Assembly (NCBI GenBank): GCA_965205485.1
Contig: OZ242180.1
Location: 3,328,001-3,392,000, forward strand
Reading direction: 5' to 3'
DNA: 64,000 bases
Source of the DNA: Candidatus Latescibacterota bacterium
GTDB lineage: Bacteria; Latescibacterota; UBA2968; GCA-2709665
In this document: positions 21,885-30,345 of the stretch, in pieces
How positions within the stretch are numbered: the first letter of the stretch is position 1
Layout of the letters: every line of letters starts with the position of its first letter
Translations under genes and position numbers: made by a program
Notes under the pieces: generated by a model
Told to the model about the DNA's origin: nothing
The model's database searches: none
What the model saw: the letters and a program-made list of their open reading frames with translations, nothing else

Positions 21885-21919
21885 AAAAAAAGCGTCAACC
21901 CGATCGGGTTGACGCTTTT
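21885..21919. terminator. Bidirectional intrinsic terminator between convergent rluD and ferredoxin
   Basis: Perfect 32-bp palindrome AAAAGCGTCAACCCGATCGGGTTGACGCTTTT (21888-21919) with A/T tracts on both sides. Confidence 0.88.
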
Positions 21920-21945: not shown

Positions 21946-22680
21946 CTACAACGTCCCCACGGGGATTCCGTATGCCTCTTCAACCTGCTGGGTATCCACC
22001 ATTTCGATGGCCTCCCAGGGGCAGATGTGTACGCACTGGATACATCCGATACAGTCTTCCAGACGGACTTCACAGAACGTGCCGATGCCGTCCAGGCCGG
22101 CGTCGGCAACGTCAACTTCCTCGATACAGTCCGTCGGACAGACTTCGATGCAGGCGTTGCAGCCTGTGCAATAGTCCGGATTGATGATGGCGATATGCCG
22201 CGGCCGCTTCTTCTTGGCCGTCATGCCGGAGCGGGAATCCAGCCACAGGTGTTCGTGGTAGTCGACGCGTTCTTTTTTCGCGACCCGCTCCGGACGGTAG
22301 ACCTCTGACTTTGGAGCGAATTCCAGCGTGCCCTCCGCGTGGGCGTGGCTGAGGCGGTACCGGTCCGAGGTAACGAGCTGGTCGGGGTCGTCGTCGTAGA
22401 CGAAACTGACCATGTCGTAACGGATGCCCACGGTGCGTCCGGCGCGTCCGTTCAGTTTGAAATGGATTCCGGGCCTGAATTCCAGAATGGCAAGGCCGGC
22501 GGGTTCTTTTTCAACTTCCGCGACGGCAGTCGCGGCGTCCGATTCAGCTTTGGCCGCGTCGGGCGCGGCTTCCGCGGCGTCGCCAGCGCCCTCTTTGGCT
22601 TTCCGCATGGCTTCGGCCTTGGCCCTGGCGCGCGCCACCCGGTCGGAGATGTTGTCAAACTGGGTAAGGTCGACGTTCAC
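21946..22680 (-). CDS. 2[4Fe-4S] ferredoxin-domain protein with N-terminal DRVARARAKAE motif and unknown middle domain
   Basis: CTGCNACIEVCP and CIGCIQCVHICP; GTG 22680 preceded by GGAGA (ATG 22725 is an alternative start). Confidence 0.88.
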   Translation of the reverse strand: MNVDLTQFDNISDRVARARAKAEAMRKAKEGAGDAAEAAPDAAKAESDAATAVAEVEKEPAGLAILEFRPGIHFKLNGRAGRTVGIRYDMVSFVYDDDPDQLVTSDRYRLSHAHAEGTLEFAPKSEVYRPERVAKKERVDYHEHLWLDSRSGMTAKKKRPRHIAIINPDYCTGCNACIEVCPTDCIEEVDVADAGLDGIGTFCEVRLEDCIGCIQCVHICPWEAIEMVDTQQVEEAYGIPVGTL

Positions 22681-22738
22681 TGAGTCGTTATCTCCGTCTT
22701 GAATGTGCCTGACTGCGTGACTCATACGATTCAGGGCT

Positions 22739-22767
22739 AAAATAAGGTCTTCCACCGGGGTTGTCAA
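22739..22767 (-). promoter_or_regulatory. Sigma70-type promoter for ferredoxin gene
   Basis: Minus strand TTGACA-17 nt-TATTTT. Confidence 0.6.
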
Positions 22768-22818
22768 GGATGAATCGGCGGCCGAACGGCGCGGAATTTC
22801 TGTGAAACAACACCGATC

Positions 22819-22848
22819 TTGACAGCGCGTGTGGCCTCTGGTTATATT
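22819..22848 (+). promoter_or_regulatory. Sigma70-type promoter for HEAT-repeat gene
   Basis: TTGACA-18 nt-TATATT. Confidence 0.55.
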
Positions 22849-22916
22849 GGAACCCGTGTTCTTGCGGATCGGCTCGAACGTTAACACAACGTGTTTATTG
22901 ACACAGAGGCTGTGGT

Positions 22917-23825
22917 ATGGACCAACCGACTCCCGACGAGGAACTCAGAAAAATCGCCGAAGACGCCTCCGCCCCGGTTTCGGACGCGGACGTCTCGCGG
23001 GCAAGGCTGGTCTCGCAGTTCGTCATTTTTCCCGTGGCGATCATTCTGGTGGCGCTCGCAATATATCTGGGATTGGGGCTGTTGACGGTCGAGCGAAAAA
23101 CGGCGGAGGACTATCTCAATACAATTCGGGTGGGCGGAATCAACAGCCGGTGGCAGGCCGCGTACGAACTGGCCACCGTGCTGGACCAGGAACAGCGGGA
23201 AGGACGGATCGGCCGCAGGTTCGTCGGAGAGTTGATCCGGGTGTTCGAGGCCTCCCGGTCGGACGACCCCCGTGTCCGGCGCTTTCTGGCCGCGGCCATG
23301 GGGAGGGTGAGGGATCCCGAACTCGTGGGCGTTCTGATTGCAGCGCTGGACGATCCGGATGACGAAACGCGGATCAACGCGATGTTTTCACTCAGGGCGC
23401 AGGGAGATCCGGGGGCCGTACCGCACCTCATCAGGATCGCTTCGAACGACGATGCGGGACTGCGCAAGGCGGCGGTGTACGCCCTTGGAGGGCTGGACGA
23501 CCCCCTCGTGCCGCCGGCGCTGGAGCAGGCGCTTCACGACCGTGCGCCCGACGTTCGCTGGAACGCCGCCCTCCAGTTGGCCGTGGCGGGTAACAGCGCG
23601 GGCCTGGAGGTGCTGGAAGAGATGCTGAGCCCGGGGTACCTGGAAGGATTCGATCGTATAAGCGGCGAGGGGAGGCGCAATATCCTGGTCGAAGCGATCA
23701 GGGCCGTGGGCATGCTCAACGCGACGTCACTGGCCCCCGCGCTGCAGCGCCTTCGTGAGACAGACCCGGACCTGCGGGTCCGACAGGCGGCCATTGAAAT
23801 CCTGAATGGCTGGGAAGCGAAATGA
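22917..23825 (+). CDS. Membrane-anchored HEAT/PBS-lyase repeat protein
   Basis: One N-terminal TM helix, then repeats of D.D..VR..A..ALG. Confidence 0.85.
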   Translation: MDQPTPDEELRKIAEDASAPVSDADVSRARLVSQFVIFPVAIILVALAIYLGLGLLTVERKTAEDYLNTIRVGGINSRWQAAYELATVLDQEQREGRIGRRFVGELIRVFEASRSDDPRVRRFLAAAMGRVRDPELVGVLIAALDDPDDETRINAMFSLRAQGDPGAVPHLIRIASNDDAGLRKAAVYALGGLDDPLVPPALEQALHDRAPDVRWNAALQLAVAGNSAGLEVLEEMLSPGYLEGFDRISGEGRRNILVEAIRAVGMLNATSLAPALQRLRETDPDLRVRQAAIEILNGWEAK

Positions 23826-23851
23826 GCGGCTGGAATCGATGGAATTGCAGT

Positions 23852-23895
23852 GGGGGATCCGGCCTGTACAGACTCGCGTCGGATCCCTCTTTTTT
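23852..23895 (+). terminator. Intrinsic terminator after HEAT gene
   Basis: GGGGGATCCGGC...GTCGGATCCCTC stem followed by T6. Confidence 0.75.
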
Positions 23896-23931
23896 GTCCC
23901 CGGGCAGGCGCGAATCTTCCCAAAATCCCGC

Positions 23932-23960
23932 TTGACAATTCGGGGTGGTTTGGATATATT
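23932..23960 (+). promoter_or_regulatory. Sigma70-type promoter of Rieske/cytochrome b/oxidase operon
   Basis: TTGACA-17 nt-TATATT. Confidence 0.7.
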
Positions 23961-24083
23961 GGCCCGGTGCCGGTGGCGCCGTAAGTGATGCAATTTCCGG
24001 TATTTCTTTAACTTATATCGTTTATTATTCAGTCCTGACGAATTCCCGCACAAAAACCGACCGCCCGGTTTCCGGGGTGCCCA

Positions 24084-25034
24084 ATGGCGGAAGATAAAAT
24101 CGACCTTTCGGAATTCGACGAAATACCCGATCGGGTGGCCAGGGCCAAGGCCAAGGCGGAAGCGCTTCGCAAGGCCCGGGAGGCCGCCGGAGGCGAAACG
24201 TCCGCGCCGAAGCCGGCCGACGAAGCTCCCGCGCAGGCCCCGGCCGAACCGGGTGGAGATTCCGGGCCATCCGAAGTGGATCTTTCGTCGCTGGACGAGA
24301 TCCAGGACCGCGTTGCCCGTGCGAAGGCCAAAGCCGAGTTGATGCGAAAGGCCCGCGGGAGTGGTGGAGCGGCGCCCGCACGCGCGCCGGTCAAGAAAGC
24401 CGCGTCCACCGCGGACCGCGCCGCCGCCGCCCGGGCTTTAACTCAGAAGACCGACGAGCCGGCCGCGGAGCGCGTGATCGTGCAGACCTCGCCGGCGCCG
24501 CCCGAAATCCGCCCCGGTCCGGAGAGAACGCAGGCCGTTGCCGAAGGCGGCATGACCACCCGGCGCGGGTTTTTCACCTGGCTGACCCTTGCGTGGGCGT
24601 CGTTCGCGGTCGCGTCCGGCGCCGGGCTCCTGGGTTTTGCGCGCTTCCTGTTTCCGAACGTGCTGTTTGAGCCGCCGCAGTCTTTCAAGATCGGGTTTGC
24701 GGAAGATTACGACCTGGGCGTGGACGAACGCTGGAAAGACAAGTTCAGCGTCTGGATTGTCAAGACCACGCAGGACATGTTCGCGCTCATTTCGGTGTGC
24801 ACGCATCTGGGGTGTACGCCCAACTGGCTGGGCAACGAACAGAAATTCAAGTGTCCCTGCCACGGCAGCGGATTTTATATGACGGGCATCAACTTCGAGG
24901 GTCCGGCCCCGCGTCCGCTGGAACGGGCGCGCATCGTGCTGGCCGAGGACGGGCAGGTGCTGGTCGACAAGACCCGCAAATTCCTGTACGAGAAGGGTCA
25001 CTGGGACAATCCGGAGTCCTTTTTGCGGATCTGA
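24084..25034 (+). CDS. qcrA: Rieske [2Fe-2S] subunit of quinol:cytochrome c oxidoreductase with ~156-aa N-terminal extension
   Basis: CTHLGC, CPCHGS, GPAPRPL; Tat-like TRRGFF plus TM helix. Confidence 0.93.
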   Translation: MAEDKIDLSEFDEIPDRVARAKAKAEALRKAREAAGGETSAPKPADEAPAQAPAEPGGDSGPSEVDLSSLDEIQDRVARAKAKAELMRKARGSGGAAPARAPVKKAASTADRAAAARALTQKTDEPAAERVIVQTSPAPPEIRPGPERTQAVAEGGMTTRRGFFTWLTLAWASFAVASGAGLLGFARFLFPNVLFEPPQSFKIGFAEDYDLGVDERWKDKFSVWIVKTTQDMFALISVCTHLGCTPNWLGNEQKFKCPCHGSGFYMTGINFEGPAPRPLERARIVLAEDGQVLVDKTRKFLYEKGHWDNPESFLRI

Positions 25035-25060
25035 ACGGGGCAGACGGCGGAATCGCCCTT

Positions 25061-25224
25061 AGAAGCTGTCTTAAAATTCCCAGCGGTCTTCGCACGGCTG
25101 CAAAAGCGCCGGTCGGCGTTGGTCAAATCCACCCGTATAGACAAATATGGGCGGATTTTCCCGCCTTGACCGCCACTTTTTCGCTCGCGCTCGGGAACTC
25201 ACCGGTAATTTTAAAACAGCTTCT
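25061..25224. mobile_element. MITE family B, complete copy (~164 bp)
   Basis: 18-bp terminal inverted repeats AGAAGCTGTCTTAAAATT / AATTTTAAAACAGCTTCT (17/18); homologous inverted copy at ~56860-56993. Confidence 0.8.
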
Positions 25225-25278
25225 TAACACGTTTTTCTTTTCTGTTTCAGCATCGCGGTACAATCGGGAGAATACGGT

Positions 25279-26064
25279 ATGCCGAAGATCTCGGGCCTTC
25301 TGGACCGGACCAAGCGCTCTCAGATCTGGAAGTCCATCTTCAGGCACGACGTGCCGAGAGACGAACGCGGTCGCGCGCAGGTGGTGCTGACCAACGTATT
25401 CTTGCATCTGCATCCCGTGCGCACGCCAAAATCGGGAATCAGGGTGCGCTACACGTGGTGTATGGGCGGGCTCACCTTCTTTATTTTTCTGATCGAGACC
25501 ATCACGGGCATTCTGCTCATGTTCTACTACCGGCCCACCCTCGAATACGCCTATACGGACATCATCGATCTGGGCGAGCAGGTGCCGCTGGGAATCATGC
25601 GGGAGATTCACCGATGGGGCGCCCACGCGATGATCATTACGGTCTGGCTGCACATGTTGCGCGTGTTCATGACGGGATCGTACAAGCCACCCCGCGAATT
25701 CAACTGGGCGATCGGCGTCATTCTGCTGCTTCTGACGTTGCTGTTGAGCTTTACAGGGTACCTGCTGCCCTGGGACCAGCTTGCCATCTGGGCCATTACG
25801 GTGGGGTCGAATATGGCGCGGGCAACCCCTTTTCTCGGTCACGAGGGGCCCGGAGCGGCATTCCTTGTGCTTGGCGATATCAATCTGGTGCACGCAGGCG
25901 ACGATGCCCGATTCGCGCTGTTGGGGGGCCGCTTTGTCGGGGAAGGCGCGCTGCTGAGGTTTTATGTCCTGCATTGCCTCTTCATCCCGTTCGTGGCGGC
26001 TGTACTCATGGCCGTTCACTTCTGGCGGGTCCGAAAGGACGGCGGAATATCCGGACCGATGTAG
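25279..26064 (+). CDS. qcrB: Cytochrome b6-like N-terminal cytochrome b subunit
   Basis: WCMGG (heme ci Cys), [27 protein letters not shown]-x14-H. Confidence 0.93.
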
Positions 26065-26109: not shown

Positions 26110-27186
26110 ATGGACTTACTGAAGGGCTTCGTCAACTGGCTTCTCACGCCTGAATATTTCCTGCCGTTGTTTGCCATTCTCTTCTTTCTGGCTTTGCGGA
26201 CCCGCTGGGTATGGACGGTCCGTTTCGGCCTCCCCGCCCTGATCGCCTCGATCGTATTCTTCCTTGTAAGTTTCCAGGATGAGAATTTCCGCATCATCGT
26301 GACCAAGGGTGACAATATCCCCATTGTCATGTTGCTGTTTCTGGTGGGTTTCTTTGTCTGGTACAGCCTGAAACAGGGGTACGACAACGACGAACGCATC
26401 GCGCGGGGCGAAGGGCCGGTTGAGAAGGCGGAATTCAAGGAGAAGGTCCTCACCTGGCCCCATCTGGTCTACACGGAGTTGATCTGTCTGACCCTTGCGA
26501 CAGTCTTCCTGATTCTCTGGTCCGTGCTCATCAAGGCGCCCATCGAGGAGCCGGCCAACCCGGCGAAAACCCCCAACCCGTCAAAGGCGCCCTGGTATTT
26601 CCTGGGGCTGCAGGAAATGCTGGTGTATTACGATCCGTGGATTGCGGGGGTCGTCCTGCCCACCCTTGTCATCGTGGGCCTCATGGCCATTCCGTATATA
26701 GACCGGAATCCCAGGGGGCTGGGTTACTATACGTTCAAGGAACGCCGGTTCGCCATTACGGTGTTCCTGTTCGGTTTTGTGGTGTTATGGGTGATGCTGA
26801 TCATGATCGGTACGTTTCTGCGCGGTCCGAACTGGAACTTTTTCGGGCCATACGAATTCTGGGACGTACACAAACTGGAAGCGCTGGTCAACGTCAATCT
26901 TTCGGAGTATATCTACGTCCAATGGCTGGGTACGGGACTGCCATCCTTCTGGCTGACGCGCGAGATATGGGGTTTCCTGCTGGTCATCCTGTACTTTCTA
27001 TTGCCGCCCCCATTGCTTGCGCAAACGGTGTTCAAGGATTTCTACAAGAACATGGGATTCGCTCGCTTTAGCGTGATGGTTTTCTTCTTCCTCTGCATGG
27101 TCGCCCTCCCCATCAAGATGTTGCTTCGCTGGCTGTTCAACCTGAAATACATTGTCGCCATTCCGGAATATTTCTTCAATATCTGA
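26110..27186 (+). CDS. Cytochrome b subunit IV-like (PetD-like) with extra TM helices
   Basis: TWPHL, PANP..TPNPSKAPWYFLGLQE, PYIDR. Confidence 0.85.
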   Translation: MDLLKGFVNWLLTPEYFLPLFAILFFLALRTRWVWTVRFGLPALIASIVFFLVSFQDENFRIIVTKGDNIPIVMLLFLVGFFVWYSLKQGYDNDERIARGEGPVEKAEFKEKVLTWPHLVYTELICLTLATVFLILWSVLIKAPIEEPANPAKTPNPSKAPWYFLGLQEMLVYYDPWIAGVVLPTLVIVGLMAIPYIDRNPRGLGYYTFKERRFAITVFLFGFVVLWVMLIMIGTFLRGPNWNFFGPYEFWDVHKLEALVNVNLSEYIYVQWLGTGLPSFWLTREIWGFLLVILYFLLPPPLLAQTVFKDFYKNMGFARFSVMVFFFLCMVALPIKMLLRWLFNLKYIVAIPEYFFNI

Positions 27187-27291
27187 GGATTCCTGTTTGT
27201 CTTCCGGCGCTGCTGCAGCATACCGTGGAATTTCTGAAGGGGTTGGTGGACGCGGCACTAAGGGCATATGCCGCCTCCCTGGAGCCGTTCG

Positions 27292-30200
27292 ATGAATGAG
27301 CCGAGGCGCTTCATAGACTTTGTCTACAACGTAGACAAAATGAACATGATTTTCGCCATCTCCAGCGTGGTGCTGGTTATCGCCGTGGTCTGGATGGTCT
27401 GGGACGACTACGACCGGGAATGGAAGGGTTTTCAGCGGGAGGCGATGGCGCTGGAGGCCTATAACACCGAGGCGGAAATCAAACTGGCGCAGGAGAACAT
27501 CGATCAGGACGCGCTGAAATCGATTGAGGACGAACTTGCGGGAATCGAGGCGTCGATCCAGGCGCACCAGAAACGATTCGATTCGGCAACGGCCGAGTTG
27601 AAGCGGCTCACACAAGCGGAGTGGTACAGCGCCGATCAGAGGCTGAAGTTCGAAAAAGCGCAATACGACGTGGTGAAGTTTGAGTATGAAGACGCTGCCA
27701 AAGCGGGACGTAAGAAAACGGCGGCGAAGAAAAAGGCCGAGATGGAGGTTATGGAGGCCCGGATTTACGAATTCCGGCTGGCTCTGGAGGCCGTGGAAGA
27801 AAAGCAGGCCGCGCAGCAGAAGATCATCGACGACGTCGCCGGGCAGCGACAGGCGCTGGAGTCCAGGCGGCGCTCGCTGAATAAGGATGAAGACAACCTG
27901 AGGCGCAAATTGACGGGTCTTGTGCCCAGTTTCCCCAACGTGTTCCGAAACCTGCCGATGGTGGATTTCATCGATCCATCCATCAAGGTACGGCAGGTCG
28001 TCCTGGCCGATCTGAGGAACGAACTCAACTTTACCCGGGTTCCGCGGGTGGACCGGTGTACCACGTGTCACGTAAACATCGACCGTCCGGGCTACGAGCT
28101 GGACCCGGAATCCGGCTGGTTCAGGAATGAAACCCTCAAAACCTACATGGAGACGGTCTACGCGGATCAAGACGTCCGGCTCGGCCGAACCCGGGCGTTT
28201 GCCACCCATCCGAGGCTGGATCTCTTCCTGAGCAGCGGCTCGCCCCATCCGATCGACGAGTCAGGGTGCACCACCTGTCATCTCGGTCGCGACCGGGGGG
28301 TGACGTTCAAGAATACCGCCCATACGCCGAGCGACGACGTCGAGGCCGCCCGCTGGAAGAAGCTGTACGGCTGGAAGAAGATGAAATACTGGGACCACCC
28401 GATGCTGCCCGGCCGCTACGTGGAATCCACGTGCGCACAATGCCACGCGGGCGTTGTCGACGTGCCGGAGGCGGACGATCTGAATCGCGGCATCCATCTC
28501 GTGCGCACGCTGGGTTGCCACGGTTGCCACAAGATCGCGAAACACACGCTTCAGGACCTGCGCAAGGTCGGGCCGGACCTGCGCAAGGCAGCCGGCAAAC
28601 TGGATCAGAATTGGGCCGTGAAGTGGGTGCGTGACCCCAAGGGGTTCCGGCCATCCACCAGGATGCCCAAGATTTTCGATCTGGCCAACGTGAGCGGGCC
28701 TGAAGATATCGCCCGCAATACGGCCGCGGTCAACGCCGTTGTGACGTATATCTTCGACAAGTCCGAACGGCCCGAGTACCCGACGCCGCCCGTACAGGGC
28801 GATGCAGGCCGGGGCGAGCGCCTCGTCGAAATGGTGGGCTGCAAGGCGTGCCACGTGGTGGGCGCGGACGACAAGTTGGGCCAGGAGTACGGGCTGCGGA
28901 ACTTCGGACCGAACCTGAACGACGTGGGCAGCAAGCTGTCGGAGGGATGGCTGTTCGCATGGCTGAAGGAACCCACGGCCTATTTCCCCGATACACGGAT
29001 GCCGAATCTGCGGCTGACCGACCGTGAAGCGGCCGACATCACGGCCTATCTGCTCACCCTTCGGAATACGGAGTTTGAAGCGCGGCAGGTGGCGGCGGTG
29101 GACCCGCAGGTGCGCGACGACCTGGTGTTGAACTATCTGCGCAGCAGGCTGCCCGTGAAGACCGCGAAGGAACAACTGGATCAGATGTCCGGCCATGAGC
29201 GGGACATCTGGCTGGGCGAGAAGATTATCTCCCGGCAGGGCTGCTTCGGGTGCCACCTCATCCCTGGGTTTGAAGATACACAGCCCATCGGCACGGAACT
29301 GACCGAAGAAGGCAGCAAGGACCTGGACAAGCTGGATTTCGGTCTGCTGGCCAAAAAGCCGGGTTCCTACAACACCGATCCCGACGCCATTCCCTATACG
29401 CGACACGACTGGTTCTATAAAAAGCTCAAACAGCCCCGGGTCTTCGACAAAGGTAAGGTGAAGCTGTACGACGACAAGCTGCGCATGCCCCAGTTCGGTC
29501 TGAGCGACGAGGATGCGCACGCGCTGACTACGGCGCTGCTTAGCATGAACAGGAGCCAGGCGGGCACCGATGCAATCAAGCGCCTGTCTCCCGATGAAGT
29601 CGATATCGAGAAGGGCCGCTGGCTGGTCTACGACAGGAACTGCAAGGGCTGCCACGTTGTGGAGAATCAGGGCGGGGCCATCCAGGATCCTCTCGTGGAG
29701 GCGTACGGAGACGAGGAAGTCCCGGCCGCCGACGCCGTGGGATTCGTGCCGCCGTCCCTCAACGGAGAGGGCAGGAAGGTGCAGCCGGACTGGTTCTTCG
29801 CCTTTCTGAAGAACGTGCAGCCTGTCCGACCGTGGCTCGAGGTGCGGATGCCCACGTTCGGTTTCGAAGACCCGCAGGCCATCGACCTGGTCACCTATTT
29901 TTCGCGTCTGGACAAGGAGCAGTTCCCCTACGCGACCTTTGTGGATAAACATTTGAGCTCAAAAGAGATGCGCGGCGCGAAGAGGCTGTTCAGCGCGGAT
30001 ATCTACAACTGTTTCACCTGCCACCAGCAGGGCGATATCAAGCCCACGGGCGATCCGGCAAGCTGGGCGCCCGACCTGAAACTGTCCAGGGAGCGGTTGA
30101 AGCCCGCGTGGATCAGGGACTGGCTGTGGGATCCGCAGAAGCTGCAGCCGGGCACCAAGATGCCCACGTTCTTCGGCGACGAAATGACCTACCTCCCCGA

Positions 30201-30345
30201 GGAAATGGCCGCCTATCTGAAGCTGCCCGAGGGGGTCAGGCCCGAGGACGGCCTGCTCGTATTGCCGACCGACGTCGTCATCGAGGCGCTCACCGACTAC
30301 ATCATCCACGGCCTCCACCAGGATTCACGGCTCACCAGACGATAG
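27292..30345 (+). CDS. Membrane-anchored multiheme (8 x CxxCH) cytochrome c with N-terminal coiled coil
   Basis: CTTCH, CTTCH, CAQCH, CHGCH, CKACH, CFGCH, CKGCH, CFTCH; repeated GP.L...W..P...MP class-I domain tails. Confidence 0.92.
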   Translation: MNEPRRFIDFVYNVDKMNMIFAISSVVLVIAVVWMVWDDYDREWKGFQREAMALEAYNTEAEIKLAQENIDQDALKSIEDELAGIEASIQAHQKRFDSATAELKRLTQAEWYSADQRLKFEKAQYDVVKFEYEDAAKAGRKKTAAKKKAEMEVMEARIYEFRLALEAVEEKQAAQQKIIDDVAGQRQALESRRRSLNKDEDNLRRKLTGLVPSFPNVFRNLPMVDFIDPSIKVRQVVLADLRNELNFTRVPRVDRCTTCHVNIDRPGYELDPESGWFRNETLKTYMETVYADQDVRLGRTRAFATHPRLDLFLSSGSPHPIDESGCTTCHLGRDRGVTFKNTAHTPSDDVEAARWKKLYGWKKMKYWDHPMLPGRYVESTCAQCHAGVVDVPEADDLNRGIHLVRTLGCHGCHKIAKHTLQDLRKVGPDLRKAAGKLDQNWAVKWVRDPKGFRPSTRMPKIFDLANVSGPEDIARNTAAVNAVVTYIFDKSERPEYPTPPVQGDAGRGERLVEMVGCKACHVVGADDKLGQEYGLRNFGPNLNDVGSKLSEGWLFAWLKEPTAYFPDTRMPNLRLTDREAADITAYLLTLRNTEFEARQVAAVDPQVRDDLVLNYLRSRLPVKTAKEQLDQMSGHERDIWLGEKIISRQGCFGCHLIPGFEDTQPIGTELTEEGSKDLDKLDFGLLAKKPGSYNTDPDAIPYTRHDWFYKKLKQPRVFDKGKVKLYDDKLRMPQFGLSDEDAHALTTALLSMNRSQAGTDAIKRLSPDEVDIEKGRWLVYDRNCKGCHVVENQGGAIQDPLVEAYGDEEVPAADAVGFVPPSLNGEGRKVQPDWFFAFLKNVQPVRPWLEVRMPTFGFEDPQAIDLVTYFSRLDKEQFPYATFVDKHLSSKEMRGAKRLFSADIYNCFTCHQQGDIKPTGDPASWAPDLKLSRERLKPAWIRDWLWDPQKLQPGTKMPTFFGDEMTYLPEEMAAYLKLPEGVRPEDGLLVLPTDVVIEALTDYIIHGLHQDSRLTRR

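Follow-up and report, generated by a model that had tools for sequence, protein, structure and literature searches.

What is the meaning of a short peptide that is repeated at the N-termini of two divergently encoded proteins, one a Rieske protein and the other carrying a ferredoxin domain? This question is raised by a locus of Candidatus Latescibacterota bacterium (assembly GCA_965205485.1, contig OZ242180.1), which we analysed in a stretch of 64,000 nucleotides (positions 3,328,001 to 3,392,000, hereafter the window, whose coordinates are used below). The peptide, of 28 residues and referred to here as the tag, occurs twice in the N-terminal tail of the Rieske protein and once in the divergent protein, and it is conserved under selection. 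Our preferred answer, to which we give somewhat less than an even chance, is that the tag ends a tethered arm that would catch a cytoplasmic electron donor, probably ferredoxin. The three copies are as follows.

22591–22674, minus strand: tag copy at the N-terminus of the adaptor-ferredoxin fusion (residues 3–30), modelled as a short helix and a long helix
24099–24182, plus strand: tag copy 1 of the Rieske tail (residues 6–33)
24276–24359, plus strand: tag copy 2 of the Rieske tail (residues 65–92)

A preliminary description of this DNA had quoted three copies of about 28 residues, each followed by an Ala/Pro-rich linker; its translations are exact at all three places and the linker is found after every copy. 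Pairwise, the copies share 20, 19 and 21 of 28 residues and 54–60 of 84 bases. A hidden Markov model (HMM) of the three copies, searched against the 93,138 six-frame open reading frames (ORFs) of the 5.1-Mb genome, found only these three (next E 0.44), and with a 28-row tag profile the next-best match in the same genome had an E of 0.18. An in-frame repeated DNA element of the RPE-like type was considered and rejected, since only three copies exist, all at one locus, and their differences are mostly synonymous (pN 0.17–0.24, pS 0.65–0.80). Among 15 genus-level sequences, compared as pooled pairwise, uncorrected proportions, pN/pS is 0.074 for Rieske copy 1, 0.043 for Rieske copy 2 and 0.142 for the fusion copy; the linkers reach 0.32–0.54, the Rieske core 0.035 and the ferredoxin part 0.024. 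Selection on the tags is close to that on folded domains, and eight of the 28 positions are invariant among 43 copies.

From modelling, the tag looks like a two-helix hairpin with an exposed conserved surface. In the predicted structure of the fusion (whole-chain pTM 0.35) the tag has a pLDDT of 72–80, with a short helix and a second helix at residues 14–30. The first half of the tag is acidic (−3) and the second half, the long helix, is basic (+5). On a helical wheel of the Latescibacterota tag, V13, A16, A20 and M23 share one face that would pack on L3, F6 and I9, and D11, R15, A18 and K19, which are invariant in the Latescibacterota and in a marine family discussed below, lie opposite the hydrophobic core. 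The earlier statement that the tag belongs to no described family agrees with our searches of Pfam, the PDB and the literature. Pfam has no family for a 33-residue tag at E up to 10, and 34 members of the tag family gave one chance-level match (E 0.13) at E up to 1; PDB sequence searches with the tag yielded chance matches only, and in NCBIfam scans of whole carriers the matches to the Rieske and fusion proteins fell on their Fe-S domains only. No description of the tag was found in abstracts, passages or by literal motif strings, and supplements may hold tail alignments. The ESM Atlas gave no usable match for fusion residues 1–150 or for the NuoI repeat described below, a result that speaks to neither novelty nor absence.

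The Rieske gene and the parts of its tail, apart from the tags, are these.

24084–25034, plus strand: Rieske [2Fe-2S] protein of 316 amino acids, with a tail of about 157 residues
24402–24446, plus strand: third short conserved tail helix (residues 107–121; pN/pS 0.055)
24471–24554, plus strand: conserved beta/Pro-rich segment before the Tat motif (residues 130–157; pN/pS 0.061)
24555–24659, plus strand: twin-arginine (Tat) motif (R160–R161) and putative uncleaved membrane anchor, from the sequence and the Rieske topology given in PMC7317946
23932–23960, plus strand: sigma-70-like promoter candidate upstream of the long Rieske start (11 of 12, consensus match only)

The Rieske domain itself is recognized by PF00355 on residues 221–280 (32.6 bits against a cut-off of 20.3). 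TRRGFF stands at residues 159–164 and is followed by one hydrophobic helix, and both tag copies precede this Tat pair and the membrane helix, as had been described. Most bacterial Rieske proteins are reported to retain an uncleaved Tat signal as their anchor with the Fe-S domain outside (PMC7317946), so the approximately 157 residues ahead of the Tat pair should be cytoplasmic. The tail requires the long reading of the gene, with a start at 24084 and not at Met 24552, and comparison of the loci upholds it. An ATG lies four to six codons ahead of copy 1 in 30 of 30 loci (the window, L031–L058 and L126), each with a loosely defined Shine-Dalgarno-like word, and in 34 tagged Rieske proteins the position of Met 24552 is filled by Met or Ile (16 each) or by Ala (two). 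Selection and start conservation together suggest that the tail is translated. In the single metatranscriptome, of which a small share was used, contigs touch the Rieske core and petB/petD only, and the zero cover of the tail is uninformative. Residues 107–121 and 130–157 are as constrained as the tags. The Pro-rich segment at 130–157 is present in the lineages with the fused gene and absent from the Rieske protein of the outgroup family, where the adaptor has its own anchor.

The divergent gene is composed as follows.

21946–22680, minus strand: fusion gene of 244 amino acids from GTG 22680, in the order tag, linker, SH3-like domain, 2[4Fe-4S] ferredoxin
22501–22590, minus strand: Ala/Pro/Glu-rich linker, predicted disordered (pLDDT below 50 at residues 31–62; pN/pS 0.53)
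22315–22491, minus strand: SH3/Tudor-like small beta-barrel (about residues 64–122; pLDDT 82; pN/pS 0.066)
21949–22254, minus strand: 2[4Fe-4S] ferredoxin part (residues 143–244), net charge −11
22739–22767, minus strand: sigma-70-like promoter candidate of the fusion gene (10 of 12, consensus match only)
21888–21919, minus strand: terminator-like hairpin behind the fusion gene (consensus scan only)

Its start is most likely GTG 22680 and not the 22887 of the ORF finder, because GGAG lies 10 nt upstream, a promoter-like site falls inside the longer ORF, and most full-length homologues have 241–252 amino acids; the promoter scan, by consensus match only, found three sites against 0.6 expected. 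The protein had been called a ferredoxin with the motif at its N-terminus, and the tag is indeed there, but it is not a plain ferredoxin, as an SH3/Tudor-like domain stands between the linker and the 2[4Fe-4S] domain. Structure searches with the whole fusion are dominated by the ferredoxin part. The barrel alone matches SH3, Tudor and KOW folds at a generic level (Z 5–7.5), without a PDB sequence match under E 0.5 or a Pfam match, and PetP, PsaE and NdhS are not among the 50 top structural matches listed for this common fold. Beside it, we noted the Pro-rich segment of the Rieske tail (24471–24554) as a candidate ligand of the SH3-like domain.

How widely is this arrangement distributed, and to which protein did the tag first belong? 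Among 168 Latescibacterota genomes, 30, all of one class, carry the tag on both the Rieske protein and the divergent gene, and this holds for 30 of the 30 loci examined. There are two copies per genome at this one locus in eight genomes, where the Rieske protein has a single copy, and three in 22. The close Rieske type is found in the same 30 genomes, and a broader tag profile added no further carriers among the 168; weak 12-residue matches in two genomes (G081, G082) were judged to be chance. A third family, the adaptor, comprises 13 proteins without an Fe-S motif; each has a single tag or two, the barrel of the fusion and, at the C-terminus, two hydrophobic helices. In two outgroup genomes (G077, G079) the place of the divergent fusion gene is taken by a membrane-anchored adaptor, and behind it comes a ferredoxin gene of its own, which has no tag and whose product is 72–76% identical to fusion residues 143–244. 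The likelier direction is a fusion with loss of the membrane anchor, because related stand-alone ferredoxins occur in a second operon of G079 (38% identity) and in Actinomycetota (30%). The former is a small 2[4Fe-4S] ferredoxin gene (L132:8397–8654) between subunit IV and the multihaem cytochrome of an untagged operon of the APWY type explained below. The tag is therefore to be traced to the adaptor with its SH3-like domain and not to the ferredoxin, which lacks it in every stand-alone form. In another class, an untagged APWY-type Rieske protein (G048, L124:1495–2559) has two different helical modules of about 37 residues with Ala/Pro linkers and a sub-threshold Rho_N match (E 0.038); in this protein the tail position is filled by another module instead of the tag.

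Distant relatives of the tag were searched with the tag profile among 1.84 billion representatives. The strong ones of the 31 matches are the Rieske, fusion and adaptor families or their fragments, and most of the weak ones are respiratory proteins; the weak matches include tails of NuoI, START-domain proteins of the membrane and a repeat protein (P0114) that was set aside as unrelated. The fear that such a model would hit merely unrelated low-complexity proteins was not borne out. The START-domain carriers (P0115, P0117) are membrane-anchored START/SRPBCC proteins whose C-termini bear three tag-like repeats, and these most resemble the marine NuoC copy. This marine set consists of 80 metagenome loci drawn with a NuoI query and probably represents few lineages. 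The C-terminus of marine NuoI bears a repeat of about 56 residues in one to five copies, the first half of which matches the tag, and the alternative is a single tag copy at the N-terminus of NuoC. In the 32 complete loci the tag is on NuoI only in 16, on NuoC only in 12, on neither in four and on both in none, the 48 incomplete loci being outside this count. Five gene maps show the tagged operons to be nuoABCDHIJKLMN without E, F and G. A profile grown from the marine NuoI tails only places the window's Rieske ORF (E 7.5e-6) and fusion ORF (E 0.57), in this order, at the top of the 93,138, and hhalign of the window tag against the marine one gives a probability of 94–95%, from which we infer that the marine repeats and the tag are one family. 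In three of the marine loci (L147, L171, L212), nqrA of the sodium-pumping NADH:quinone reductase closely follows the 11-subunit nuo operon.

A look-alike tag with a longer first helix is present in 72 of 351 sampled Actinomycetota genomes; subunit IV of the present type occurs in 66 of these 72 and in 147 of the 351 overall (71, 65 and 135 once 12 genomes marked unpublished are left out). Sixty distinct carrier ORFs, part of the matches, comprise 28 NuoI (tag C-terminal), 20 APWY subunit IV (tag N-terminal), two NuoC and ten other or partial proteins; of these ten, two are unannotated proteins and most of the remainder are truncated or frameshifted fragments. An untagged small ferredoxin lies upstream of 19 of the 20 tagged subunit IV genes, the flank of the 20th being too short. 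Five Actinomycetota genomes that encode both types of nuo operon were checked, and in all five the tag is on the 11-subunit operon and missing from the 14-subunit one; in one of them, G295, the tagged frame next to NuoI looks frameshifted. That tagged genomes lack NuoEFG was considered and rejected, because these five and the genome of the window also encode a 14-subunit operon, and the absence holds per operon only. The actinobacterial profile ranks both window ORFs first (E 3.8e-5 and 0.0094), with seeds that had been found with the window's own pattern, and hhalign gives 96–97%, but over the long helix only (21–22 columns). Homology of the actinobacterial tag to that of the window is less secure than for the marine family, and convergence is possible. 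In G388, NuoI (L285:5181–6005) and an unrelated unannotated protein (L286:6005–8185) share a 45-residue tag region without a single difference, which suggests recent copying; a protein similar to the second of these is also tagged in G281 (L299). By eye, the Rieske tail (24402–24446) and actinobacterial subunit IV tails (L257, L287, L293) have a second short helix of similar pattern after the tag and linker, S/T-x-x-D/E-R followed by alanines, and the whole tail may have moved between Rieske and subunit IV genes.

The Rieske gene is flanked by the following genes.

22917–23825, plus strand: HEAT-repeat protein with one N-terminal membrane helix; promoter candidate at 22819–22848
25279–26064, plus strand: short cytochrome b (PetB-like) with a CMGG candidate haem ci motif (residue 61)
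26110–27186, plus strand: extended subunit IV (PetD-like) with an APWY Qo motif (residue 160)
27268–30345, plus strand: octahaem cytochrome c (8 CxxCH), followed by haem-copper oxidase genes

By these sequence marks the operon falls in the APWY clade of Rieske/cytochrome b complexes (PMC4122944), because cytochrome b is split, WCMGG is present and APWY lies in a separate subunit IV; the clade is probably the same as subfamily G of PMC5600118. The operon resembles those of the clade as outlined in PMC4122944, where binding of haem ci at WCMGG is said to need verification and where the passages on the clade leave a Rieske tail, tag or adaptor unmentioned. Over 26 rows of HEAT proteins, basic residues stand immediately ahead of the one N-terminal membrane helix and the repeats come after it, a topology in which the repeats would probably face outward. 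Between the Rieske gene and petB (25057–25226) lies a 170-bp element with 21-bp terminal inverted repeats, where the read depth peaks. BLAST matches it 131 times across the genome, 92 times over at least 120 bp, and it looks like a MITE-type repeat. Elsewhere in the genome (contig positions 1355705–1367483 and 4242905–4253681) there are an NADH-type nuo operon and an 11-subunit operon, neither of them tagged; NuoI and NuoN were not seen in the gene map of the NADH-type operon, and Mrp-like antiporter genes follow it.

We propose that the tag would be a two-helix hairpin carried at the tip of a disordered arm rich in Ala and Pro. It would serve as a portable docking tag on subunits that face the cytoplasm in respiratory complexes lacking a built-in module for NADH input. 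It would bind an acidic 2[4Fe-4S] ferredoxin and hold it near the electron entry site. For the APWY-type b6-like complex of the window this site may be the haem ci/Qi face, and for 11-subunit complex I, in other genomes, it may be NuoI. Here the partner held by the Rieske tail would be the ferredoxin domain of the divergent fusion protein, whose own tag may be inherited from a membrane-anchored tag and SH3-like adaptor beside a free ferredoxin. A catching arm is the simplest reading because the tag can stand at the N- or the C-terminus of different subunits, in differing numbers, always in complexes that lack their own NADH input, and is absent from free ferredoxins. Charge complementarity supports it as well, given −11 on the ferredoxin part and +5 on the long helix of the tag. 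Ferredoxin is described as docking on a basic surface of NdhI/H/V/O in NDH-1 (PMC7021789), and its site on the b6f complex has been proposed beside haem cn (PMC9342900). A complex of the full fusion with Rieske residues 62–157, two 4Fe-4S clusters included, was predicted together with three controls and scored 0.34 against 0.00 for the best control, a weak pass; the pass mark is reached by 116 of 157 solved and two of 215 mismatched pairs, and scores of at most 0.60 comprise 18 of the 157 solved pairs and both mismatches. The runs agree in at least 55% of contacts with a partner pLDDT of at least 46, and give no interface. The earlier idea that the Rieske tail pairs with the ferredoxin protein thus gains this weak pass but no contact surface.

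A number of observations weigh against a ferredoxin-catching arm. The fusion's tag stays selected though its ferredoxin is covalently attached, and a pure ferredoxin-catcher needs none. The single-chain model of the fusion gives no hint that the tag packs on its own ferredoxin, and the complex score, lacking an interface, does not distinguish tag-ferredoxin from tag-tag or Pro-rich/SH3 contacts. Neither the two START-domain carriers nor the two unannotated actinobacterial ones are known redox proteins, and by a rough count most actinobacterial operon ferredoxins are only mildly acidic. The tag is also optional: 81 of the 147 Actinomycetota genomes with this subunit IV gave no tag match, this Rieske type is untagged in four Latescibacterota genomes of other classes, as is a second Rieske paralogue in G079, and the genome's own 11-subunit nuo operon is untagged. 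Homology across the families spans 19–28 aligned columns, and the genomes are kin, so that the counts represent few independent events. A wider reading, less probable than the catching arm itself, is that one hairpin family has moved between Rieske, subunit IV, NuoI, NuoC and the SH3-like adaptor in at least three lineages, as a ferredoxin arm that would replace the NADH module of 11-subunit complex I and feed haem ci of non-photosynthetic b6-type complexes.

The main rival, and the leading idea of the preliminary description, is that the tags pair with one another, acidic half to basic half, zipping the soluble fusion onto the Rieske tail and, in Actinomycetota, joining 11-subunit complex I and the b6-type complex in a loose supercomplex. 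The charges of −3 and +5 are self-complementary, tags sit on at least two different proteins per genome (30 of 30 loci, and five of five in Actinomycetota), and such pairing accounts better than a ferredoxin catch for a tag that stayed on the fusion when the membrane anchor was lost. The weak pass of the predicted complex is compatible with it, and the Rieske tags of the outgroup are nearer to their own adaptor tags (22.9 of 28) than to other Rieske tags (19.8). However, where a chain has two tags, their pairing in cis would be in competition, the marine operons carry the tag on one subunit only, and the preference for operons without NuoEFG is not predicted unless extra assumptions are made, for which reasons we regard tag-tag pairing as a somewhat improbable account. 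The tags may instead bind a shared non-redox hub, such as an anionic lipid, a scaffold, DNA or an assembly factor, which positions the tagged complexes in the cell. Non-redox carriers do exist, the conserved face of the tag is basic, the identical region in G388 lies on NuoI and an unrelated protein, and the untagged G048 Rieske protein has its other tandem helical module on similar linkers with the sub-threshold Rho_N match. Such a hub leaves the untagged 14-subunit complex I of the same genomes unexplained, no nucleic-acid-binding family in Pfam matches the tag, and we consider it unlikely.

The preliminary description had offered the neighbouring HEAT-repeat protein as a common partner that recruits both carriers, and its gene does lie between the two tagged genes in the mapped loci. 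This suggestion has become very unlikely: the membrane helix and the basic residues before it would place the repeats outward, the gene is retained in the untagged operon of G048, and it was not seen, by eye, in three gene maps of tagged actinobacterial operons. It can practically be excluded that the tag is a low-complexity Ala/Lys helix, a functionless in-frame DNA repeat or part of an untranslated Rieske tail. The C-terminal half is rich in Ala, Lys and Arg, and the sole RNA run, uninformative on this point, does not cover the tail; on the other side stand a pN/pS of 0.04–0.14 in the tags against 0.3–0.5 in the flanking linkers, the invariant positions, the mere three copies genome-wide, and the start codon kept ahead of copy 1 in every locus examined.

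Returning to the tethered arm, by analogy the tag works like known tethered docking modules and is a member of none of those tested. The peripheral-subunit-binding domain of 2-oxoacid dehydrogenase E2 (PF02817) is likewise a small helical docking domain between Ala/Pro-rich flexible linkers; it differs in sequence and context, and the tag did not match Pfam. In cyanobacterial NDH-1, which also has no NADH module, NdhS, NdhV and NdhO are described as small accessory parts near NdhI/NuoI that aid ferredoxin docking via basic residues, and NdhS shares its SH3-like fold with the middle domain of the fusion, although the same source records the argument that NdhS acts only indirectly (PMC7021789). 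Unlike the tethered 28-residue tag, these are separate folded subunits, and there is no sequence match. PetP of the cyanobacterial b6f complex is presented as an SH3-fold protein on the cytoplasmic face, 15.9 Å from haem cn at the predicted ferredoxin site (PMC9342900), and in these respects resembles the SH3-like domain of the fusion. However, PetP has neither tag nor ferredoxin and is proposed to compete with ferredoxin (PMC9342900), and it gave no sequence match, so that the likeness is an analogy only. Also comparable are the 40-residue repeats at the C-terminus of RsxC/RnfC, reported as variable in number and Ala/Lys-rich, with ARAKAK and Ala/Pro spacers, on the cytoplasmic Fe-S subunit of a membrane redox complex (PMC10587187). 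The preliminary description had called this similarity loose; by eye the stretch R15-A16-K17-A18-K19 is indeed common to both, but the first helix (DLxxFDxI) and D11-R12 are not matched. The repeats are C-terminal and belong to a different complex, and the account of them in PMC10587187 assigns no function.

The direct electron donor of 11-subunit complex I has been called an open question (PMC11238625). The tag marks the copy without NuoEFG, and not the NADH-type copy, in the same genomes, and in addition marks ferredoxin-linked b6-type complexes, and may therefore serve as bait for the docking partner. If there is indeed one ferredoxin-catching family, a synthetic 30-residue peptide would pull out the electron donor of both complexes. 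To this the window adds a fused and split gene pair that would tie the tag, the SH3-like domain and ferredoxin to the cytoplasmic face of the b6-type complex.

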